This document shows positions 2,365 to 12,280 of a stretch of 64,000 bases of DNA, piece by piece. A model generated the notes under the pieces. The model had not been told where the DNA came from and did no database searches. It worked only from the letters and a program-made list of their open reading frames with translations. Source of the stretch: Verrucomicrobiota bacterium (lineage in GTDB: Bacteria > Verrucomicrobiota > Verrucomicrobiia > Limisphaerales > AAA164-E04). Positions within the stretch are counted from its first letter, which is position 1. The number at the start of each line of letters is the position of its first letter. The stretch lies in the NCBI GenBank assembly GCA_047947115.1, contig CP170459.1, positions 3,296,001 through 3,360,000 on the forward strand, given 5' to 3'. A program made the translations under genes and the position numbers.

Positions 2365-3678
2365 TTAATATTTAGGGAAGATGTCAGGTGTCGGGAATCG
2401 GTCTTCGTAGCTGGAATTGAACAGGTATTCTTCGCGGGGTATCTGCATCTTGGGCCAGTTCTGCGGTCGGATACGGATGACTCTTCCGGGACGAATGCCT
2501 TCGATGATCAGATCGGTGTCAAACTGGATCTGAATGCCGCTGCTGCCGATGGGGACTTTACCCGTAGCACGTGTGATATTCAGAATGGTGCCATTGGAAG
2601 CCAAGTGCCCCGGACCGTAGTGGCCGGCTGTGTGCTTCAGGGTGTTTTCAGCTCCGTTCATTTGTGCTGCGACTCCTTTGCGGAAGTCGTCGTACAGCGT
2701 GGGATCCATTCCTCCGAAGAGCGTGGCGCTGACGGTGGCGCGTCCGAATTTGCCATACTCGACGGCATCGACCCAGCCCGGCATCCAACGGCTGCGGATG
2801 AAGGTTTTGTGTGTTTCGGTCTGAAATTCGGCGGCGTTATGGATGGCTGCTTCGTCCAGCCAGATATCCGAAATGTGGAAGCGCGTGAAGGCTCCACTCA
2901 GTCCATCACCCGGCGCCGGTCTCCAGGTGATCCCTAGTAAGACTGCTTGCCCGTCGAGATCCCTTATGCCAGTGGCTGGCCATGTGCCTTCGGAGATCAT
3001 GTCCCTGACCCGAATTCGCTCTCGTCCCCGCCAAATACGAGTGGCGGCGTCGAAGGTCAAATTTTCCTCGTCTACGTTGTTGTCACCTCCGGTTTTCCGT
3101 TCACGGCGGGCGATGATCTTGCCCGCGTTGTTCTCGATCTCCAATGTTTTCAACTTCCAAACTTTGCCTTCGCGTAGGCAGTGACTGGGCTCGTCTTCAA
3201 GAAGGAGTAGGTGGTTCTCGGCCGGCGCGGTTCCTGTTCCACGATAATGTCCGACGTCTTTATCTTTGTGGTCGACCGGTAATACGGGAACGACGGAGAT
3301 CTTCGGGTCCGGTGGGAGAAATCCCCGGACGTGCATCACGGTGCCGAGCGGGACGTCGCGCAGATCCGCCGGTGCACCGTGATACCGGATGATGCCGTAG
3401 GGGAGCATGGCGAAGGGTTGCGGATCATTTCGGTAGAACTTTCCATCGCCCGCCACACGGAGGCTTCCTCGGCGGTTGGGGTGATCCACGAATACCAGTT
3501 CACCGCGGTAGGCGTGTGCTTTTTCCATCGGAGGGAAGACTCCGGTTTTGGGGCGAAAAATCTCCGGTTTTGGCTCCGTGACCGGCTCGGCCGCGGTGGT
3601 GTTCACTTGGAGGATGACCGAAAAGGCGAGGGCGATTCGCCATCGATTCAAAAGTGATGGAATTGGATTCATGAGCAT
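2365..3678 (-). CDS. Secreted hypothetical protein, tandem paralog of 3687-4937
   Basis: 437 aa ORF with a signal-peptide-like N-terminus; shares long motifs with its neighbour ([48 protein letters not shown]). Confidence 0.85.
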
Positions 3679-3686
3679 TTAATGCA

Positions 3687-4937
3687 TTAGTATTTCGGAA
3701 AGACGGCTGGGGAGGGGAAGCGGTCCTCAAGTTTGCTGCCGTCGCCGATGTATTCTTCGCGGGGAATGTTGACCTGAGGCCAACTGGCGGGGCAGATGCG
3801 AATGACTCGTCCGGGACGAATGCCTTCGATGATCAGATCGGTTGAAATGGTAACCTGGATGCCGCTGCTGCCCATAGGCGGCTCTCCCTCGGTTCTTGTC
3901 ACTTCGAGGATGGTTCCACGTGAAGCCATATGGGCTGGACCGTAATCTCCACCCGCGTGCTTCAGGGTGTTTTCGACGCCGTTCATCATGGCGGAAATAT
4001 CCTTGTTGAAATCGGCGTAAAGTGAGCCGTCCATGCCGCCAAACAAGGTAGCTGTGACGGTGGCTTGACCAAATTTGCCGTAATCGACCGCATCGACCCA
4101 GGCAGGCATCCAGCGACTGCGGATGAAGGCGTTGTGGGTTTCGGTCTGGACTTGCGTGGCGCGCTGCATGGCCACGTCATCCAGCCAGATATCCGAGATG
4201 TGAAAACGGGTGAAGACTCCATCCGGTGTGGGTTTCCAGGTGATCCCGAGCAGGACGGGTTGGTCTTCCAGGGATTTCTTGCCGCTGGCGGGCCAGGTTC
4301 CCTCGGCGATCAGATCCGCGACGACAAGGCGTTCACGTCCGCGCCAGAAAAGTGTGGCCGCGTCAAAGGTCAGTTTTTCCTCTTCGCTCTCGTCGCCGCC
4401 TCCTTGTATGGTTGAACGGCTGGCGATGATCATTCCCTTGTTGTTTTGGATGTCCACTTCCTTCAGTTTCCATACCTTGCCTTCGCGCAGGCAGTGACTC
4501 GGTTCGTCTTCCAGAAGCAAGACATGGTTTTCGGCGGGGAAAATGCCCGCGCCTCGGTTGTGGTCGGCATCCTTCTTTCCACTGTCCACCGGCAACACCG
4601 GCACGGCGGAGATGCTTGGGTCCGGTGGAAGAAAGGCGCGGACGTGCAGCACTGTGCCCAGGGGGATATCCCTAAGATCGGCCGGTGCTCCGTGATAGTG
4701 AATGATACCATAAGGCAACATGGCGAAGGGATGCGGGTCGTTGCGGAAGAACATGCCGTTGCCTTGCACCCGGATGCTACCACGACGGTTGGGGTGATCC
4801 ACGAAGATCAGTTCGCCCCGGTAGGCGTGTGCTTTTTCCAGTAGGGGAAATTCTCCTGCCTTGGGGCGGAATGGAGATTCCGCGGTGAGGGTGAGGGTTG
4901 TTAGGAGGGTTAAAATCTGAATCTTACTCTTAATCAT
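3687..4937 (-). CDS. Secreted hypothetical protein, tandem paralog of 2365-3678
   Basis: 416 aa ORF, 8 bp upstream of its paralog, with the same conserved motifs. Confidence 0.85.
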
Positions 4938-4941
4938 AATC

Positions 4942-5100
4942 CTAATCGCTAACTACTAACTACTAAATACTAAATACTAATAGATAAATACTAACTACTA
5001 AATACTAATAGATAAATACTAAATACTAAATACTAATATCTAACTACTAACTGCTAATAACTAATAGCTAATAAATAATAACTAATAGCTAAAAACTAAA
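4942..5100. repeat. Degenerate heptamer tandem array (CTAA-NNN; about 23 units in unbroken 7-nt phase)
   Basis: Units CTAATCG, CTAACTA, CTAAATA, CTAATAG, ATAAATA and others fill essentially the whole intergenic gap between the DUF1552 stop (5101) and the next ATG (4937). Confidence 0.95.
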
Positions 5101-6474
5101 TTAAACCCCAACCACCCCATTACTATCCCCAAACCGATCCGCCTCAACCCCCATGCGTTGCGCCATCAAAAGCAGAAGATTGCTCATATGGGCACCCGTA
5201 TTCACAGGCCGACCGCAGATCTGATAATGTGCGGAGGTGAGCGCACCGTCAGGATCCAGGGAATAACCCTTGAAGTCCTTGGCCTCACGGTTGAAGTCGA
5301 GATGGCTGCCATGCTTCAGACCGAGATCCGAACCACCTGCGAGCACCAAGGGGAGATTGGCATTGCCATGGCTGTGACCGTAGCACATGCCACTTCCGAA
5401 GAGTGACATGGTGGTGTCGAGCAGCGGTTTGCCGTTGAGATCCTTTGTTTCGCTGAGTCGCGAGAGGAAGTAGCTGAACTGCTCGACCGCAAAGGTGTCG
5501 TAATTCGTGAGCTTTTCCATGTAACCGGCATCGCCTCCGTGATGACTCAACTGATGGCGAGACTCCGTGATGCCGATTTCGGGAATGGAGAAAGCATCCC
5601 CTTCGCCGCCCAGACTGAAAGAGGCCACACGGGTCACGTCCGTTTGAAAGGCGAGCACCATGAGATCGTAAACGGTGCGGAAATACTCGCCAGCCTGGGT
5701 TTGGGGAATGTCGCGGTTGGTGCGCTTGCGGTCGGCTTGGGAGATTTCGGGAAGTGGTGTGTCGAGCCAGGCATCGGCGCGTCGGGTTCGGATCTCCGCC
5801 TCACGAACGGAAGTAAGGTATTGCTCAAGGCGACCCTTGTCTTCGACTCCCATCTTTTTCTCCAAGCGACGCACTTCGGCCAGGTTGTCATCGAGTATGC
5901 TGGCTTTGCGACGCAGCGATTTCCTTTGGGCTTCGACACCGCCTTTCGGTTCTTCAAATAAAGTGGCAAAGATCTGACTGCAACGCCGCAGAGCGGGTAA
6001 TTGCACCCCATCTGCGGTCCAGGCAAGAGATCCCTGTGTGAGGGCGATCTCCATGGATGGATAACGGGTGTGTGGCGCGGTGACTTCGGCCATTTTTTGG
6101 TCCACTGAGATGGTGTTGCGATCCGAGGGACCTAGTTTTCCTCCAGTGAGAAAGACATCGATGCAGTTGTGATGATGCCCCAGGGCGCCGGGATGATGCA
6201 GGCCGCTGATGGGGGTGATGACATCACGGTGCTTTTCCAGAGGTTTGAGTGACCTGGAAAACTGGTAGTCCTTCCCTGGTGTCAGGATCTGGTAGTTCAG
6301 CGAATGAACCCCATTGGCCAGGTAGACGAAGGCGCTGCGTTTAGGGGAAGCCGTGTCTAGCTCAGCCGCCCGGAGCGGAATCATGCATTCCAACATGGGG
6401 AGGGAGATGCAGGCGCCCATGGCGCGCAAGGCGTGACGGCGGTCGATCCGCCAGGATTGGGAGAGGATATTCAT
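5101..6474 (-). CDS. DUF1552 (HXXSHH) domain protein, Tat-like N-terminus
   Basis: [55 protein letters not shown]. Confidence 0.9.
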
Positions 6475-6548
6475 GGGGTTAGTTGTTAGCTTTTAGTTGT
6501 TAGTTGTTAGTTGTTAGTTGTTAGTGGTTGGGTTTTGGCTCTTAGTTT
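6475..6548. repeat. Heptamer array, left arm (GGGG, then TTAGTTG/TTAGCTT/TTAGTGG units)
   Basis: Seven clear units at 6479-6527 plus three degenerate in-phase units to 6548. It overlaps the 3' end of the four-helix-bundle gene, whose stop lies inside the array. Confidence 0.9.
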
Positions 6549-6887
6549 TTGGATGTAGGTGTTGAGCATGCGTTTGATTTGGATGAGTTCATTGTTTGTT
6601 GTTTTGTATGCGTTTGGTGGAAGATAATTCAGGTCGTTTGCCAGGAGGAGCTGATATTCCAGTTCGGAGGCGGAACCCATGGCGTTGTCGAGGAATCTGG
6701 CGAAGTCCTTTTCCGTGTTCCGACCGCTACCTTCCGCGATATTGGTTGGAATCGAAGAAGCGGACCGACGCATCTGACGGACAAGTCCATAGCATTCGGC
6801 TTCGGGAAAGCTTTGTGTGATCCGGTAAATATCCAGAGTAAGCCCATGCGACCGAACCCAAATCTGCAATTTCCTAAAATCTCTCAT
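6507..6887 (-). CDS. Four helix bundle protein (TIGR02436 / 23S rRNA intervening-sequence protein family)
   Basis: MRDFRKLQIW.RSH.LTL.IY.IT..FP..E.YGL..QMRRSASSIPTNIAEGSGR.T.KDFARFL..A.GSASELEYQLLLA.DL.YL is the family signature; ATG at 6887. Confidence 0.93.
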   Translation of the reverse strand: MRDFRKLQIWVRSHGLTLDIYRITQSFPEAECYGLVRQMRRSASSIPTNIAEGSGRNTEKDFARFLDNAMGSASELEYQLLLANDLNYLPPNAYKTTNNELIQIKRMLNTYIQKLRAKTQPLTTNN

Positions 6888-6900
6888 CCAACAAAACAAA

Positions 6901-6992
6901 CTAAAACCTAAAACCTAAAAGCTAACAGCTAACAGCTAAAACCTAAAAGCTAACAGCTAACAGCTAAAACCTAAAAGCTAACAGCCACCCCC
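6901..6992. repeat. Heptamer array, right arm (CTAAAAC/CTAAAAG/CTAACAG x12, then CCACCCCC), inverted relative to the left arm
   Basis: Twelve units at 6901-6984 with a higher-order 28-bp period (CTAAAAC CTAAAAG CTAACAG CTAACAG). Confidence 0.95.
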
Positions 6993-9422
6993 TCACCGCC
7001 TCCTCATCAATTCCGATACAGCCACCACCCGAATGATATCCTTCACACGGTAATTGTTCTTTTCCGCTTCGGCCTGGATGTCTTTGAGGTCGTCCTGATC
7101 GTCCACTGTCAGCACACGGCGCAATGCATAGGTGCACAGGTGCTCGATAAAGGCTTGGGCGATCCGATCGCGATCATTGAGCAGGATCTGTTTGAACTCG
7201 TTGGCGCCATTGAAGGCACGTCCATCCGGCATAACGCCGGTTGCATCAACCAGGGGATCCTCGCCTTTGCCCTTGGGAACCCGCTCGCGTTCGCGCCATT
7301 GACCGATGGCATCGTAGTTGTCCCAGGCAAAGCCCAGTGGATCGATGTTTGCATGGCATGAGGCACAATTCACATCGGTTGCATGCACCTCCAGTCTTTG
7401 GCGGACGGTTACTTTGTCACCATCAGGCGGAACGGGTTCGATTGGATTGACATTTGCCGGTGGTGGTGGCGGTGTTTTATTGAAAATCACTTCGCTGAGC
7501 CAGACTCCTCGGTGGACCGGACGGTGGCGGGTGCCGTCCGAGGTTAATCCGAGCACAGCGCCCATCGTCAGGAGGCCGCCGCGACGGTGTTCTGGTTGGA
7601 GCGATAGGCGTTGGAAGTCGCCGGTCTGTGGCTCGGGCAGTCCGTAGAAATCACACAGCCGGGCGTTGACCACGGTCCAGTCGGAATCAATAAAATGGTC
7701 GATCGACAGATTCTTCGCGATCATCTCGCGAAAAAACTCCACCGGCTCGGCCCGCATGCTCGTCTCGAGCCAGTCGTCGTAGACCGGGTAGAGTCCCCGG
7801 TCAGGCGGGAACATGCCGACTCGGTGCAGTTGCAGCCATTGGCGGGAGAAGTCGTCGATGAAACGGTTGATTCGATCGTCCGTCAACATTCGATCCACTT
7901 CCTGCAGGAGTCCGTCGTTGTTCAAGGTTCCTTCTCTTGCCGAGGCGAAGAGTTCATCATCCGGCATGGAACTCCAAAGAAAATAAGAAAGCCGTGAGGC
8001 AAGTTCCCATTCCGTGAGATGCTCACGCGTGACGGGGGCTCCTTCGACCAGATAGATGAAATGTCTCGATGTCAGGACACGCAGCATCGCTCCGCGCCAG
8101 GCATCGCCCATTGTCTCACCTGCTTTGCGGTCGGAGCGATACGAATCCAGGTATCCTTGCAGTTCCTGCATCTGGACCGGTCGCCGCCAGGCGCGTTCGG
8201 CGAAGCGCTGCAGATGTTCGGTGACCACTTCGTCGCTTGCGTTATCAGCCGGGATCACGCCTTCGCGCCGGGCTTGTTCTGATTGCGACACCAGTGGGCC
8301 TTCCCATTCAATCCAGTCGAGAAGCACCGTGGAAAAAATTCCATTCCCGTTGCCATCGAACATTTGTGGTGCGTTGGGATTGAGGAGCAGGGTTTCGCTG
8401 CTGTGTGTAAAAGTGTAGCCACGTCCGAACGCATTGCGAAAGGCGGCACCACCTCTACGGTCAACGACATCCGTTGCTACCACGGCGAAATGCAATCCGG
8501 TCGGCATCTCGAGAAACACTTCGAACTCGTAGACACTGGGATCATCCTCCGGCGCGGTGATGTCAAACTCAATCAACCCATCCACGGTTTCCTCACTGGT
8601 TCTCAAACCGATGCTGAGATGGGCCGGTTGACCGCCGGGCGGACGGATGCCACTGGCTTGCAGTCGGAGACGGTAGAGGCCGCTTTGTTCCGGACCTGGT
8701 CTTCCAAACCAGTGGGCCTGGAAGGCACTCTGAACACGACCGGGAAAAAGAAGATACCGCAATGGACGCTTGATGCCAAAACGCTCCAGAGCTTCTATCT
8801 CCTCCTTTCCACCACCATAGCCCAACTCCGCCGCCGTCTTCCGAACCTTGCGTGATTCGCCAGAAACGGCGGGAAAGGCGCGATCCAAAACCAGTTTGGC
8901 GGCCCTGTAGTATCGATCCACATGCGATGGCGAGAGAGACAATTCCGAACCAATGCGCTCGAATCCGTGCCAAAGCGTGTCCTCATTCAATTCGCCCGGT
9001 TTGGTGGGGTCGTATCGTACGCCGAGCAGGTCGTAGACCGTGTTCTGGTATTCTTTCCGGCTCAGACGGTAATGTGCCACCGGTGGCCGAGCCGCCATGC
9101 GCGCCGCTTTGCCTGCTTTTAATTTCGTGTCGAGATCTGTAACGAATTTGGTGATTTCGTCTTGCTTGGGTTGAGGTTCTCCTTCAGGGGGCATCTCGCC
9201 GCTATTGATCTTCTCGATGACCTCCGCCCAGATATGTGAGTCCTCACCCAAGCGAAAATTGCGAGAGATCTGATCGATCCGAAGGTCGCCTTTCATCTTA
9301 TCCGGGCCGTGACAGCTCAAGCAATGCGTTTGTAGAAAAGGTTCAAACGGTTCAGATGCTGGTAGTACCGTGGCTACAGCCAAGGATGCAAGCATGACAA
9401 AACAATGACGCTCAATAATCAT
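6993..9422 (-). CDS. Planctomycete-type cytochrome c protein with DUF1587/1595/1592/1588/1585 domains
   Basis: N-terminal CLSCH heme motif, [43 protein letters not shown]...PVHRGVW, second heme motif CASCH, IDPLGFA. Confidence 0.92.
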
Positions 9423-9521
9423 AGCGGAATGAGAAAGGGATATACTGCGCGATTTTTAGCAACGGCTCAAGCCTGCTATTTCGGGTTGGATGCTTGATAG
9501 ATGAGAGAAAAATGGAAATTT

Positions 9522-9564
9522 ACTTTGCAATGCAAAGTTGGAATGTTACTTTGTGTTGCAAAGC
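9522..9564. promoter_or_regulatory. Two tandem palindromic operator-like sites (ACTTTG-N5-CAAAG)
   Basis: Perfect 8-1-8 palindrome ACTTTGCA-A-TGCAAAGT (9522-9538) and degenerate copy ACTTTGTGTTGCAAAGC (9548-9564), in a divergent promoter region. Confidence 0.6.
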
Positions 9565-9632
9565 GAGTGAGGTTATCTAACCCGGAACTTTGGTGTTCAT
9601 CATTTTCGCATTGAAATAATTTCCAAATAACA

Positions 9633-10733
9633 ATGAAAGACAACAGTCGAATCCGTAAAAATCTACTCCTGATGTTGACCATGACCCTGTTCATGATCTC
9701 CATCTTGCTGGAACCGCAAGCTCAGGACAAAGGACCTGAAACTTCGCTGACTTGGAACGATCTGGGTTTAGGTGGCGTACCTGAAGGAGTTTCAACCGAC
9801 GAGCTTGTCATGATCGAAAGCCTTGAGGAAGGGCGGGGGACATGGGAATTTGAAGGCAGGATCATGCAGGACCGGGGCCCGATTCCGATTCAGGGAAAAA
9901 TGGATATCACGGGCTCTCTAAAGGGCGGTATGCTTCCTATGTGGGCGCTGACCTTGAATTGGCCGCGAGAGGATCCCGAGCATGCCATTTTTTATTCGAT
10001 CATGGTCGCGCCTGAAAACAAACAGATCGAATTGATGCTTTTCCGCATAGGCCCCGTCAGAGTCGGTGCTGAAGGCAAACCTACCAAAGATGACTTGGTG
10101 AAAGCACAACGCATCCCGTTCAAGGGGGACTGGGATTTGGAACACAGAAGAATCCTTTGGAAACAGAGCAGGTTGCCCGGAAAAATGGGTGTAAAAGATG
10201 AGCCTGATCAGTTAAAATCTCAAACTTTGGAGATGGAATCTTTCGAAATGATCCTGGCAGACAACGGATCGGTAACCATTCAAAATACAAAGAGTGACGT
10301 TGGAGGATTCGAAATTTCAGGAAAAACAACAGCCCGCATGGGCGACCCGGTGGTAAAGGAAACCCTGGCTTATAACAGAGACATGCGCTTTGCGACCAGA
10401 GACGATGTTTCGGAAGCTCATATCAAGCCGTACATTCCTGGCGCGGCAGTGGACATTACTCTCAACCTGCAGAGGAACGGTCATTACGCTCTTTACAAAA
10501 TCGGCGAAAAGGATTTTCTCAAATTTTTGGATGACCTGTGGCAAGGAAAAGAAAGAGAAAAGGGCGTGGCCGTCAACCAACGAGAAATGGCCAAGCACTT
10601 TGAGCGACTCGGATGGGAACCTTTTGAAAACGCCATCTCATACAACAGCCCCAGCAAGCCTAATGGCGCTATGAGTAACTATTACTACAATGCGAAGACT
10701 GGCATGGTTTTTGAAAATACTGGATACTGGTAG
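9633..10733 (+). CDS. Secreted hypothetical protein
   Basis: 366 aa ORF with a signal peptide; no recognisable family motif. Confidence 0.75.
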   Translation: MKDNSRIRKNLLLMLTMTLFMISILLEPQAQDKGPETSLTWNDLGLGGVPEGVSTDELVMIESLEEGRGTWEFEGRIMQDRGPIPIQGKMDITGSLKGGMLPMWALTLNWPREDPEHAIFYSIMVAPENKQIELMLFRIGPVRVGAEGKPTKDDLVKAQRIPFKGDWDLEHRRILWKQSRLPGKMGVKDEPDQLKSQTLEMESFEMILADNGSVTIQNTKSDVGGFEISGKTTARMGDPVVKETLAYNRDMRFATRDDVSEAHIKPYIPGAAVDITLNLQRNGHYALYKIGEKDFLKFLDDLWQGKEREKGVAVNQREMAKHFERLGWEPFENAISYNSPSKPNGAMSNYYYNAKTGMVFENTGYW

Positions 10734-10759
10734 AATGATTCCGGAGGCTTGCTTTTTTG

Positions 10760-10876
10760 GTAGCTGTTAGCTGTTAGCTGTTAGTGGTTAGTGGTTAGTG
10801 GTTAGCTAATGGCTGATGGCTAATGGCTAATGGCTAATGGCTAATGGCTAATGGCTAATGGCTAACCTCTTTTAGC
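10760..10876. repeat. Inverted heptamer array (TTAGCTG-type x3, TTAGTGG x3 | CTAATGG x8) between convergent genes; possible bidirectional terminator
   Basis: The arms meet at palindromic TTAG|CTAA (10802-10809); a small GCTAA...TTAGC hairpin abuts the DUF1501 stop. Confidence 0.9.
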
Positions 10877-12280
10877 TTACCCGATGATCTCATTTATGGG
10901 CCCGTTGCCTTCTTCGACCAAAAGTGAGACGGGCCCGAGTTCGGGGAGGAACATTTTGGTGTGATCGATGCCGAGTTGGTGGAGGATGGTGGCATGGAGG
11001 TCGCTGTAGTAGTGACGGTTTTCGACCGCCTCATAACCCACTTCGTCGGTGGCTCCGTGGACCACGCCACCTTTGATGCCGCCACCTGCCATCCATGAGG
11101 TGTAGCCTTTGGGGTTATGATCGCGGCCGGTGGTGTTTTGCGACCAGGGCGTGCGTCCGAATTCACTCGTCCAGACGACCAGTGTGTCGTTCAGCATTCC
11201 ACGCTGCTTGAGGTCTTTGATCAGTCCTGCGATCGGCTTGTCCGTGGCTCGGCAATGTGGCGCGTGTTCCTTCATGTCGCCATGGGCATCCCATCCACCG
11301 TTGCCGCCGCCTGCGTGGCAGATTTGAATGAACCGCACGCCTCGCTCGGCCAGGCGGCGCGCGAGCAGTAATTGTTTTCCAAATGACTGCGTGTGATCTT
11401 GGTCAATGCCGTAGAGTGATTGTATATGCGCCGGTTCACCGTTGAGATCGACCGCCTCGGGTGCGGATAATTGCATGCTGGCTGCGAGTTCGTATGCTTT
11501 GATTCTGGCTTGGATATTCGAGTCAATCGAGTAGCGGCGGTGAAAATCGGCGTTCATCTTTTCCAGCACTTGCATTTGACGGTCACGTTCGGTTGCCGAT
11601 CCTGTCTTGGGAGGGTGAAGGTTTGGTATGGGCGTTTCATTGGCCTGAAAAGGCGTCGCGGAAACGGAAGCACCCAGGTAGCCTCCGGTGAGCTGCACTG
11701 GTGACGAGGGGCGTCCGATGTTGACGAAGCTCGGCAGGTTCTTGTTCGCGCTGCCAAGTGCATGGGTTACCCAACTACCGAAGGATGGGTGATCAAATGC
11801 TCGGCCTCGGTGACCGGTGGTGGTTTCGATCACGGCAGGAAAATGATTACCTTCGTGGCCCCACATGGACCTGACAACCGCAATCTCATCGATGACGCTT
11901 CCGACATGTGGGAACCAATCCGAAACGGGCGTTCCGGACTGACCGTAGCGCGTAAAAGTGCGAAGACAGGGGATGACGGGACGCCGCATCTCGGCAAGGT
12001 TGTCCCCAAATCCGATGGCGTCGATGAATTTGCCGGCGTGTTCGTTGCCTTTCGGATCAAATGTGTCGATATGGCTGACGCCACCGCACATGAATAGAAA
12101 AATAACCGATTTGGCTTTCGGTTGAAAATGGGGGCCCAGCATGGCGTCCTTGATGTCCCCTCCTTCCGCCCAGATGCCGCCCAGTGCTGCACCGAGAAAA
12201 CCGCCACCCGCGCGATGGAGAAAATGACGTCGTGAAATTCGCCTGTGTGGAAGTGAGTATGGATTCAAATCAGCGGACAT
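10877..12280 (-). CDS. DUF1501 domain protein (Tat-exported)
   Basis: SRRHFL, KAKSVIFLFMCGGVSHIDTFDPK, LLARRLAERGVRFIQI, WDAH, SEFGRTP, GRDHNP; start taken at ATG 12280, overlapping the upstream stop. Confidence 0.92.
   Translation of the reverse strand: MSADLNPYSLPHRRISRRHFLHRAGGGFLGAALGGIWAEGGDIKDAMLGPHFQPKAKSVIFLFMCGGVSHIDTFDPKGNEHAGKFIDAIGFGDNLAEMRRPVIPCLRTFTRYGQSGTPVSDWFPHVGSVIDEIAVVRSMWGHEGNHFPAVIETTTGHRGRAFDHPSFGSWVTHALGSANKNLPSFVNIGRPSSPVQLTGGYLGASVSATPFQANETPIPNLHPPKTGSATERDRQMQVLEKMNADFHRRYSIDSNIQARIKAYELAASMQLSAPEAVDLNGEPAHIQSLYGIDQDHTQSFGKQLLLARRLAERGVRFIQICHAGGGNGGWDAHGDMKEHAPHCRATDKPIAGLIKDLKQRGMLNDTLVVWTSEFGRTPWSQNTTGRDHNPKGYTSWMAGGGIKGGVVHGATDEVGYEAVENRHYYSDLHATILHQLGIDHTKMFLPELGPVSLLVEEGNGPINEIIG

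Follow-up and report, generated by a model that had tools for sequence, protein, structure and literature searches.

A repeat-armed four-helix-bundle gene cassette at operon junctions of Verrucomicrobiota encodes a protein that likely binds its own heptamer

The junction between the DUF1592 and DUF1552 genes of a Verrucomicrobiota bacterium holds a cassette in which the gene for a four-helix-bundle protein lies between inverted arrays of heptamer repeats. What is observed is how the cassette is built, that the same junction is empty or differently filled in relatives, that the gene has been lost from between repeat copies, and that repeat type tracks protein type. The reading that we favour, with some reserve, is that such repeat-armed cassettes come and go at operon junctions, that the protein forms a predicted five-subunit ring which likely binds the core of its own heptamer, and that the cassettes spread likely by homologous recombination and not by splicing. 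The window is the whole stretch of DNA that was analysed, 64,000 nucleotides long, and positions are those of the window unless a genome or locus is named.

Results

Anatomy and predicted fold of the cassette

Inspection of the sequence gives a gap of 518 nt from the DUF1592 TGA (6995-6993) to the DUF1552 ATG (6474). The features of the region are:

6993..9422, minus strand: upstream host gene, a DUF1592/1588/1585/1595/1587 cytochrome-c-domain protein of 809 aa whose stop is the 5' edge of the cassette (profile search)
6900..6992, minus strand: 5' arm, a GGGGG clamp followed by about 12 TTAG(C/G)NN heptamers with a 28-nt super-period (sequence, repeat search)
6507..6887, minus strand: four-helix-bundle gene, 126 aa, TIGR02436/PF05635, start ATG at 6887 (profile search, structure model)
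6561..6563, minus strand: codon of helix-4 residue Asn109, which varies in step with the second base of the T-N-A-G core (alignment)
6475..6550, minus strand: 3' arm, CTAACAA/CTAAAAG heptamers and CCCC, overlapping the end of the ORF and covering the DUF1552 initiation region (sequence, fold)
5101..6474, minus strand: downstream host gene DUF1552, 457 aa (profile search)
4942..5099, minus strand: single-arm TTAG array without a gene, filling the next operon junction and of strain-variable length (repeat search, strain comparison)
10754..10871, no strand assigned: TTAG/CTAA heptamer hairpin without a gene, between convergent genes, of the same repeat family as the cassette (repeat search)

The inverted arms (6475-6550 and 6917-6992) are 76% complementary and their arrays have a period of 7; the last codons of the four-helix ORF overlap the 3' arm, and no promoter-like site was found within the cassette. 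The first-pass annotation had the cassette filling the gap with no spare base, which is true of this strain but not elsewhere, as the sister genome, conspecific strains and relatives differ. Its account of the outer 22 nt stands, with 19 Watson-Crick pairs, one G-U pair and two mismatches by hand count, although the perfect 13-bp block has three candidate partners within the 5' arm. The stable long-range stem that it expected is also predicted: the mRNA-strand fold reaches -161.6 kcal/mol (z -3.62), which 0 of 100 shuffles equal, and the outer register pairs with a probability of 0.99, but the GGGG/CCCC clamp with only about 0.5. Its proposal of register-specific pairing was upheld in part: in the outer register, matching at unit position 7 exceeds that of shuffled units (0.43 versus 0.32; 0/500 shuffles), as one of 8 tests. 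Hairpin template switching could also yield such a match.

In the predicted stem lie the AUG of the cassette gene itself and the stretch from -1 to -20 of DUF1552. The idea that an upstream ribosome frees the DUF1552 start finds no support in the folding, in which melting the outer 15 nt of the stem leaves both starts buried (0.35 to 0.36). There was no Rfam match up to E 1 in window positions 4500-11500, and searches gave no match in phages and one in viral contigs.

Several neighbouring features were recorded. The array at 4942-5099, in which 49-102 nt are deleted or replaced among strains, could pair with the 3' arm of the cassette and so enclose DUF1552, at -37 kcal/mol as against -60.5 kcal/mol for the cassette's own arms. 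A 16-nt inverted match between the DUF1592 end (7027-7042) and the DUF1552 start region (6464-6479) is absent from the predicted fold and apparently lineage-specific. The minus-strand genes at 2365-3678 and 3687-4937 encode tandem, visibly paralogous, secreted-looking proteins without a Pfam or NCBIfam match, and a homologue of the latter comes next after DUF1552 in 75 of 80 relatives.

The same junction among relatives

Eighty loci were found via DUF1552, and the junction counts use the 77 that show both genes. An empty junction of 45 nt or less (minimum 6 nt) is present in 28 of the 77, in agreement with the earlier proposal of a transposase-less cassette, for which relatives should show empty sites, and profile searches detected neither a nuclease nor a transposase or integrase domain in it. 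Another 13 of the 77 hold a co-oriented four-helix gene, one with an internal stop and one decayed; these come from four clades and, with one representative per clade checked, carry clade-specific repeats of the TTAG, GTTCTTG, GGAGTGTT and AATG types. Of the remaining junctions, 31 are occupied by spacers 53-193 nt long that are in many cases heptamer hairpins, two by GxxExxY genes with other inverted arms and three by other genes. The next operon junction, after DUF1552, behaves in the same way.

On the DUF1552 host tree the presence of the gene requires 14 changes, against 14.7 with shuffled labels, and near-identical hosts carry different inserts (L099/L100/L102; L094/L096). Locus L052 shares arm and spacer with L049 and L058, the difference being the gene, which lies between direct AACCAAGAAC arrays, and the hairpin at L046 is a deletion product, because it retains the 3' end of the ORF. 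No target-site duplication is evident in the alignments of L052/L049/L058 or of L046 and the sister genome. Insert type tends to be matched by the final 45 nt of DUF1592 (8 of 2000 permutations, with hand-curated labels in place of automatic hairpin labels from a loose pattern), most clearly at L099; this hints that recombination in the flanks is the route of exchange. The operon is 70-96% identical in records labelled Verrucomicrobiota, Planctomycetota and Omnitrophota (L025-L104), which suggests frequent horizontal transfer.

Other armed elements were also seen. GTTCTTG/CAAGAAC hairpins lie just 3' of DUF1552 in L026, L028, L039, L046, L050, L054, L074, L080, L094, L096 and L102 and extend into the N-terminal codons of the next gene (the homologue of 3687-4937), apparently around its signal peptide. 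Genes for GxxExxY (PD-(D/E)xK-like) proteins also lie within inverted arms, at L293:1460-1910 (about 3.798 Mb in the source genome), L035 and L100, and two such armed genes occupy the DUF1592-DUF1552 junction as the four-helix cassettes do.

The four-helix protein

The protein matches TIGR02436 (130.8 bits against a cut-off of 24, E 2e-38) and PF05635 (132.6 bits against 33.8, E 8e-39). Its predicted structure (pLDDT 94) has four helices, at residues 8-24, 35-54, 59-85 and 91-119, and superposes on 2GSC, the XCC0516 fold, with a TM-score of 0.89 and an rmsd of 1.1, and on Avd with a TM-score of 0.75. By analogy with 2GSC, which has five chains and is a pentamer according to the available text of PMC4990558, the protein is predicted to be a homopentamer. 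Profile searches and the structure model found no catalytic domain in what is a plain four-helix bundle. The ORF is under purifying selection, with dN/dS of 0.09-0.21 in three pairs with relatives; three of the four listed strain differences within it are non-synonymous.

In the accessible parts of bioRxiv 2023.10.23.563531, PMC6182149 and PMC10053308, Avd is described as a related pentamer binding an RNA stem-loop, and its structures (4DWL, 8UB7; bioRxiv 10.1101/2023.10.23.563531) show the same fold, with five protomers contacting the RNA through flipped-out bases. Unlike the Avd of diversity-generating retroelements (DGRs), the window protein falls below the cut-offs of the Avd profile (26.1 bits against 80) and the bAvd profile (20.3 against 40), and it has no DGR reverse transcriptase beside it; the single PF00078 match of the source genome, at 1.378 Mb, is 1.9 Mb away and has a group II intron reverse transcriptase as its best hit.

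Repeat and protein vary together

A total of 202 unique family loci was reduced to 183 with enough flanking sequence and to 169 after de-duplication at 90%. Complementary arms at a z of at least 3 flank 112 of these 169 non-redundant genes, while 57 fall below z 3. Repeat units follow protein clades: when arms are swapped between loci the score climbs from 31 to 47 with protein identity, whereas own-arm scores are 51-58, and the own arm outscores the swapped arm in just 62% of pairs at 70-90% identity. In the clade of the window protein 41 of 60 loci have readable arms, and base 2 of the T-N-A-G core agrees between the two arms in 37 of the 41 (shuffle mean 16), while spacer bases 6-7 pair in only 43%. 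The arms of homologous cassettes thus co-vary, as the first-pass annotation had anticipated. Because the repeat changes together with the protein across relatives, the protein likely reads its own repeat.

The protein column that stands out is residue 109 of helix 4. Asn accompanies TTAG in 12 of 12 loci, Ala TCAG in 12 of 12, Thr TCAG in 8 of 9 and Ile or Phe TGAG in 3 of 3. Held-out loci gave Asn 5 of 5 readable (one more being without units), Ala 6 of 6, Thr 4 of 5 and Ile 1 of 1, and the held-out Asn matches include two cyanobacterial plasmids. The link is not one-to-one, as Thr occurs with TTAG in L169 and L308, Gly with four cores and Tyr with two, and Gly and Tyr are inconsistent in the held-out set. 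Since synonymous codons vary, the link sits at the level of the protein; a remnant of the repeat inside the ORF was considered as its source and is ruled out, given that the third base of Leu codons ignores the repeat and codons vary. On a FastTree phylogeny the independent residue-base pairs number one on starred branches and four on all branches, too few for a test, and as this tree is poorly resolved, co-evolution of residue 109 and base 2 is not proven.

Arrays across genomes

The source genome (G000) has two genes of the four-helix family, and the second (L002:1440-1870, at about 2.824 Mb) has ATGGTGA arms. The genome also contains nine TTAG loci without a gene, three of which are hairpins, and 24 further ATGGTGA sites, whereas control patterns give 0-4. 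By crude ORF calls, the outer end of the ATGGTGA repeat is the one nearer to a gene end at 22 of 26 sites. Among 61 genomes, arrays of the TTAG(C/T/G) type are abundant in G000 and G001, the only carriers of a close gene, and G018 and G041 have other TTAG-containing units. ATRGTGA arrays number 35 in G000, 86 in G001 and two in G024; a gene 74-100% identical is present in G000 and G001 only, and yet G024, with its two matches, has family genes that are just 47% identical. Six other genomes of the same genus (75-94% complete) lack the cognate genes and both the TTAG and the ATRGTGA arrays. Given that G000 and G001 are sisters, this co-occurrence of array and gene counts as one lineage. The cassette gene of G001 has an internal TAA and 34 array matches remain in that genome; no ORF remnants were found near orphan arrays.

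Other arrays were noted. GTTCTTA and AATTAGG arrays at about 2.479-2.480 Mb and 3.110 Mb of the source genome have no cognate four-helix gene found in that genome. A cassette of the TTAG clade lies between cas6 and cas4 on a Pseudanabaena plasmid (L309:986-1665), with an extra CTAA-type array just 5' of its own start. The many TTAGGGT arrays on contig C2 of G018 may be a different element or contamination, and these units resemble plant telomere repeats.

Intergenic heptamer repeats described in other bacteria

TAACTGA repeats precede starts, and MacGregor proposes an as yet unnamed repeat-binding protein as the mobile element (accessible text of PMC4679880); GGGAATC repeats obey the same positional rule (accessible text of PMC4692102). 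As far as these texts go, both repeats share with the cassette arms a period of 7, patchiness among lineages and inverted pairs, with one orientation following stops and the opposite one preceding starts. TAACTGA is the reverse complement of a TCAGT-core unit of the window protein's clade. In the accessible part of supplement 2 of PMC4692102, GGGAATC repeat 15 follows bccP at a distance of 6 nt and extends over the annotated start of XCC0516, the solved pentamer. This adjacency was looked up as a prediction, with a prior of about 6% (242 of 4240 genes), and the repeat has no partner arm in that listing. The searched text of the two papers names no four-helix protein, and a search that covered papers outside subscription found none linking the TIGR02436/PF05635 family to heptamer arms outside rRNA.

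Discussion

The cassette class is widespread, barely described and related to the ORF-bearing intervening sequences (IVS) of 23S rRNA (S23p/PF05635). The Coxiella IVS, as presented in the accessible text of PMC4990558, likewise has a protein of this family in a stem loop, a variable number of heptamers upstream and a decaying ORF, and its 28-bp stem is cut by RNase III. Complementary termini that form a stem around an ORF, a mark of an IVS, are present in the window cassette. However, unlike the 23S rRNA IVS, it lies between two protein genes, its stem is interrupted and relatives without the gene are dispersed in the genome; by its location it is not an IVS, and the assembled contigs gave no sign that it is spliced out. 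A version of the IVS idea for mRNA is that RNase III cuts the stem and frees the cassette RNA while the cut ends stay unjoined, so that only insertions between genes do no harm, and that the heptamers are stem material as in the 23S rRNA IVS. The Coxiella precedent, the position of cassettes between genes, the stable predicted stem and the register-specific match at unit position 7 all speak for this reading. On the other hand, interruptions divide the mRNA-strand stem into helices of 4, 2, 13, 4, 6 and 6 bp, whereas the antisense strand folds better (-194, z -6.3), with helices of 5, 15, 3, 19 and 13 bp, and wobble pairs favour the mRNA strand in 46 versus 56 of 112 cassettes, with no sense excess. 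The better antisense fold, together with one cassette (L310) that is placed antisense to its neighbours, counts against a role specific to the mRNA. Contigs from RNA libraries, which may include DNA and cannot show cuts, span both cassette edges in three of five runs (X16, X17 and X19; X15 and X18 cover the cassette patchily and contig depth was set aside), and the link between residue and base is left unexplained. We therefore regard cleavage of this kind as unlikely to be the main explanation, and it is compatible with a cassette that recognises itself.

It is also rather unlikely that the element acts on DNA, with rings that attach to the two inverted arrays as DNA, or to a cruciform, join the ends, promote recombination or insertion of the cassette and seed arrays in trans. 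REP/RAYT systems, MITEs and integron cassettes offer a parallel, combining one gene with many short gene-less hairpins or placing promoterless inserts at gene junctions; the window cassette differs from all three in having no nuclease, transposase or integrase domain, so the comparison would be with a REP/RAYT or MITE lacking its own nuclease. Pairing without strand bias, the antisense insertion at L310, gene presence or absence bounded by direct repeats and the confinement of arrays to gene-bearing genomes are consistent with action on DNA. For the last, at least two matches to the TTAG pattern or the reversed control occur in 24 of 37 genomes with the family and in 0 of 24 without it, a hand tally in which kin are not independent. 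Against it stand the plain four-helix bundle, the alignments with no evident target-site duplication and the RNA-binding described for Avd, the characterised homologue.

That the cassette is a neutral hitch-hiker, with arms generated by slippage and hairpin template switching that are merely linked to the gene, and with a residue-base link that reflects shared ancestry, is improbable for three reasons: first, the ORF is held by purifying selection; second, the core is conserved while the spacer bases are free; and third, the held-out predictions hold across phyla. The weak tree independence of the link, the rapid gain and loss of units between strains and the pseudogene and decayed copies are what such a hitch-hiker would leave behind.

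The first-pass annotation had further suggested that the stem joins stop to start and loops the insert out of the mRNA; in a splicing or bypass reading the insert would be excised and rejoined, or skipped by the ribosome. Although the stem in this strain begins at the stop and ends at the start, true splicing or bypass is very improbable: 0 of 77 orthologous gaps are shorter than 6 nt and no empty site reads UGA|AUG; none of the 15 other inserts with a gene reaches both the stop and the start; the ends are not kept, as the sister genome (L025) is without the CCCC clamp and conspecific strains have indels at 6474-6480 and of whole units; and no joint skipping the cassette was found in assembled contigs, where rare forms drop out, of five RNA runs (X15-X19, five of six listed) and three DNA runs (X1, X2 and X12, of 14 strong holders). 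Distances between outermost pairs are weak evidence here, as folding tends to bring ends together, and a genome-wide survey of abutment, in which the two ends each came within 3 nt in 1 of 76 cases, is left out of the argument, since its alignments extended beyond stops and made it noisy.

The favoured reading, a cassette whose protein recognises its own arms, suggests the following sequence of events. The cassette gene would ride on the transcript of its host operon, and the arms would pair and bury both the cassette's own start and that of DUF1552. The pentameric ring would then bind TTAG(C) cores, perhaps one per subunit, with residue 109 of helix 4 reading core base 2, and by competing with the stem it would tune translation. 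The TRAP attenuation ring, which is unrelated and serves as an analogy only, reads short cores with 2-nt spacers and competes with a stem. Homology with Avd makes RNA a slightly likelier ligand than DNA. Hairpins without a gene and single arrays elsewhere in the genome would have arisen from sites of this system by decay or expansion.

On the strength of these sequence comparisons, the window protein likely binds its heptamer, and the four-helix protein would likely be the missing partner of the unexplained heptamer repeats of bacteria. A broader and more tentative proposal, which we think possible but would not yet back, is that PF05635 proteins are programmable pentamers that read repeats, each clade using helix-4 residues to recognise a 7- or 8-base unit of its own, travelling as a selfish cassette armed with that unit, and seeding and maintaining the heptamer arrays spread over the genomes of Verrucomicrobia, cyanobacteria, Xanthomonas and Beggiatoaceae, which would give them a post-transcriptional regulon; the 23S rRNA IVS would then be one landing site and Avd a domesticated member. 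The cassette offers a cheap and concrete test of two old puzzles, namely the role of the '23S rRNA IVS / four-helix-bundle' family outside rRNA and the identity of what binds and spreads intergenic heptamers. For a swap of specificity, a single residue and a single base can be pointed to, and the two cassettes of this genome, with their different repeats, control for one another. Should the code be real, it would provide a small modular nucleic-acid reader and a means of gene mobility without a transposase.
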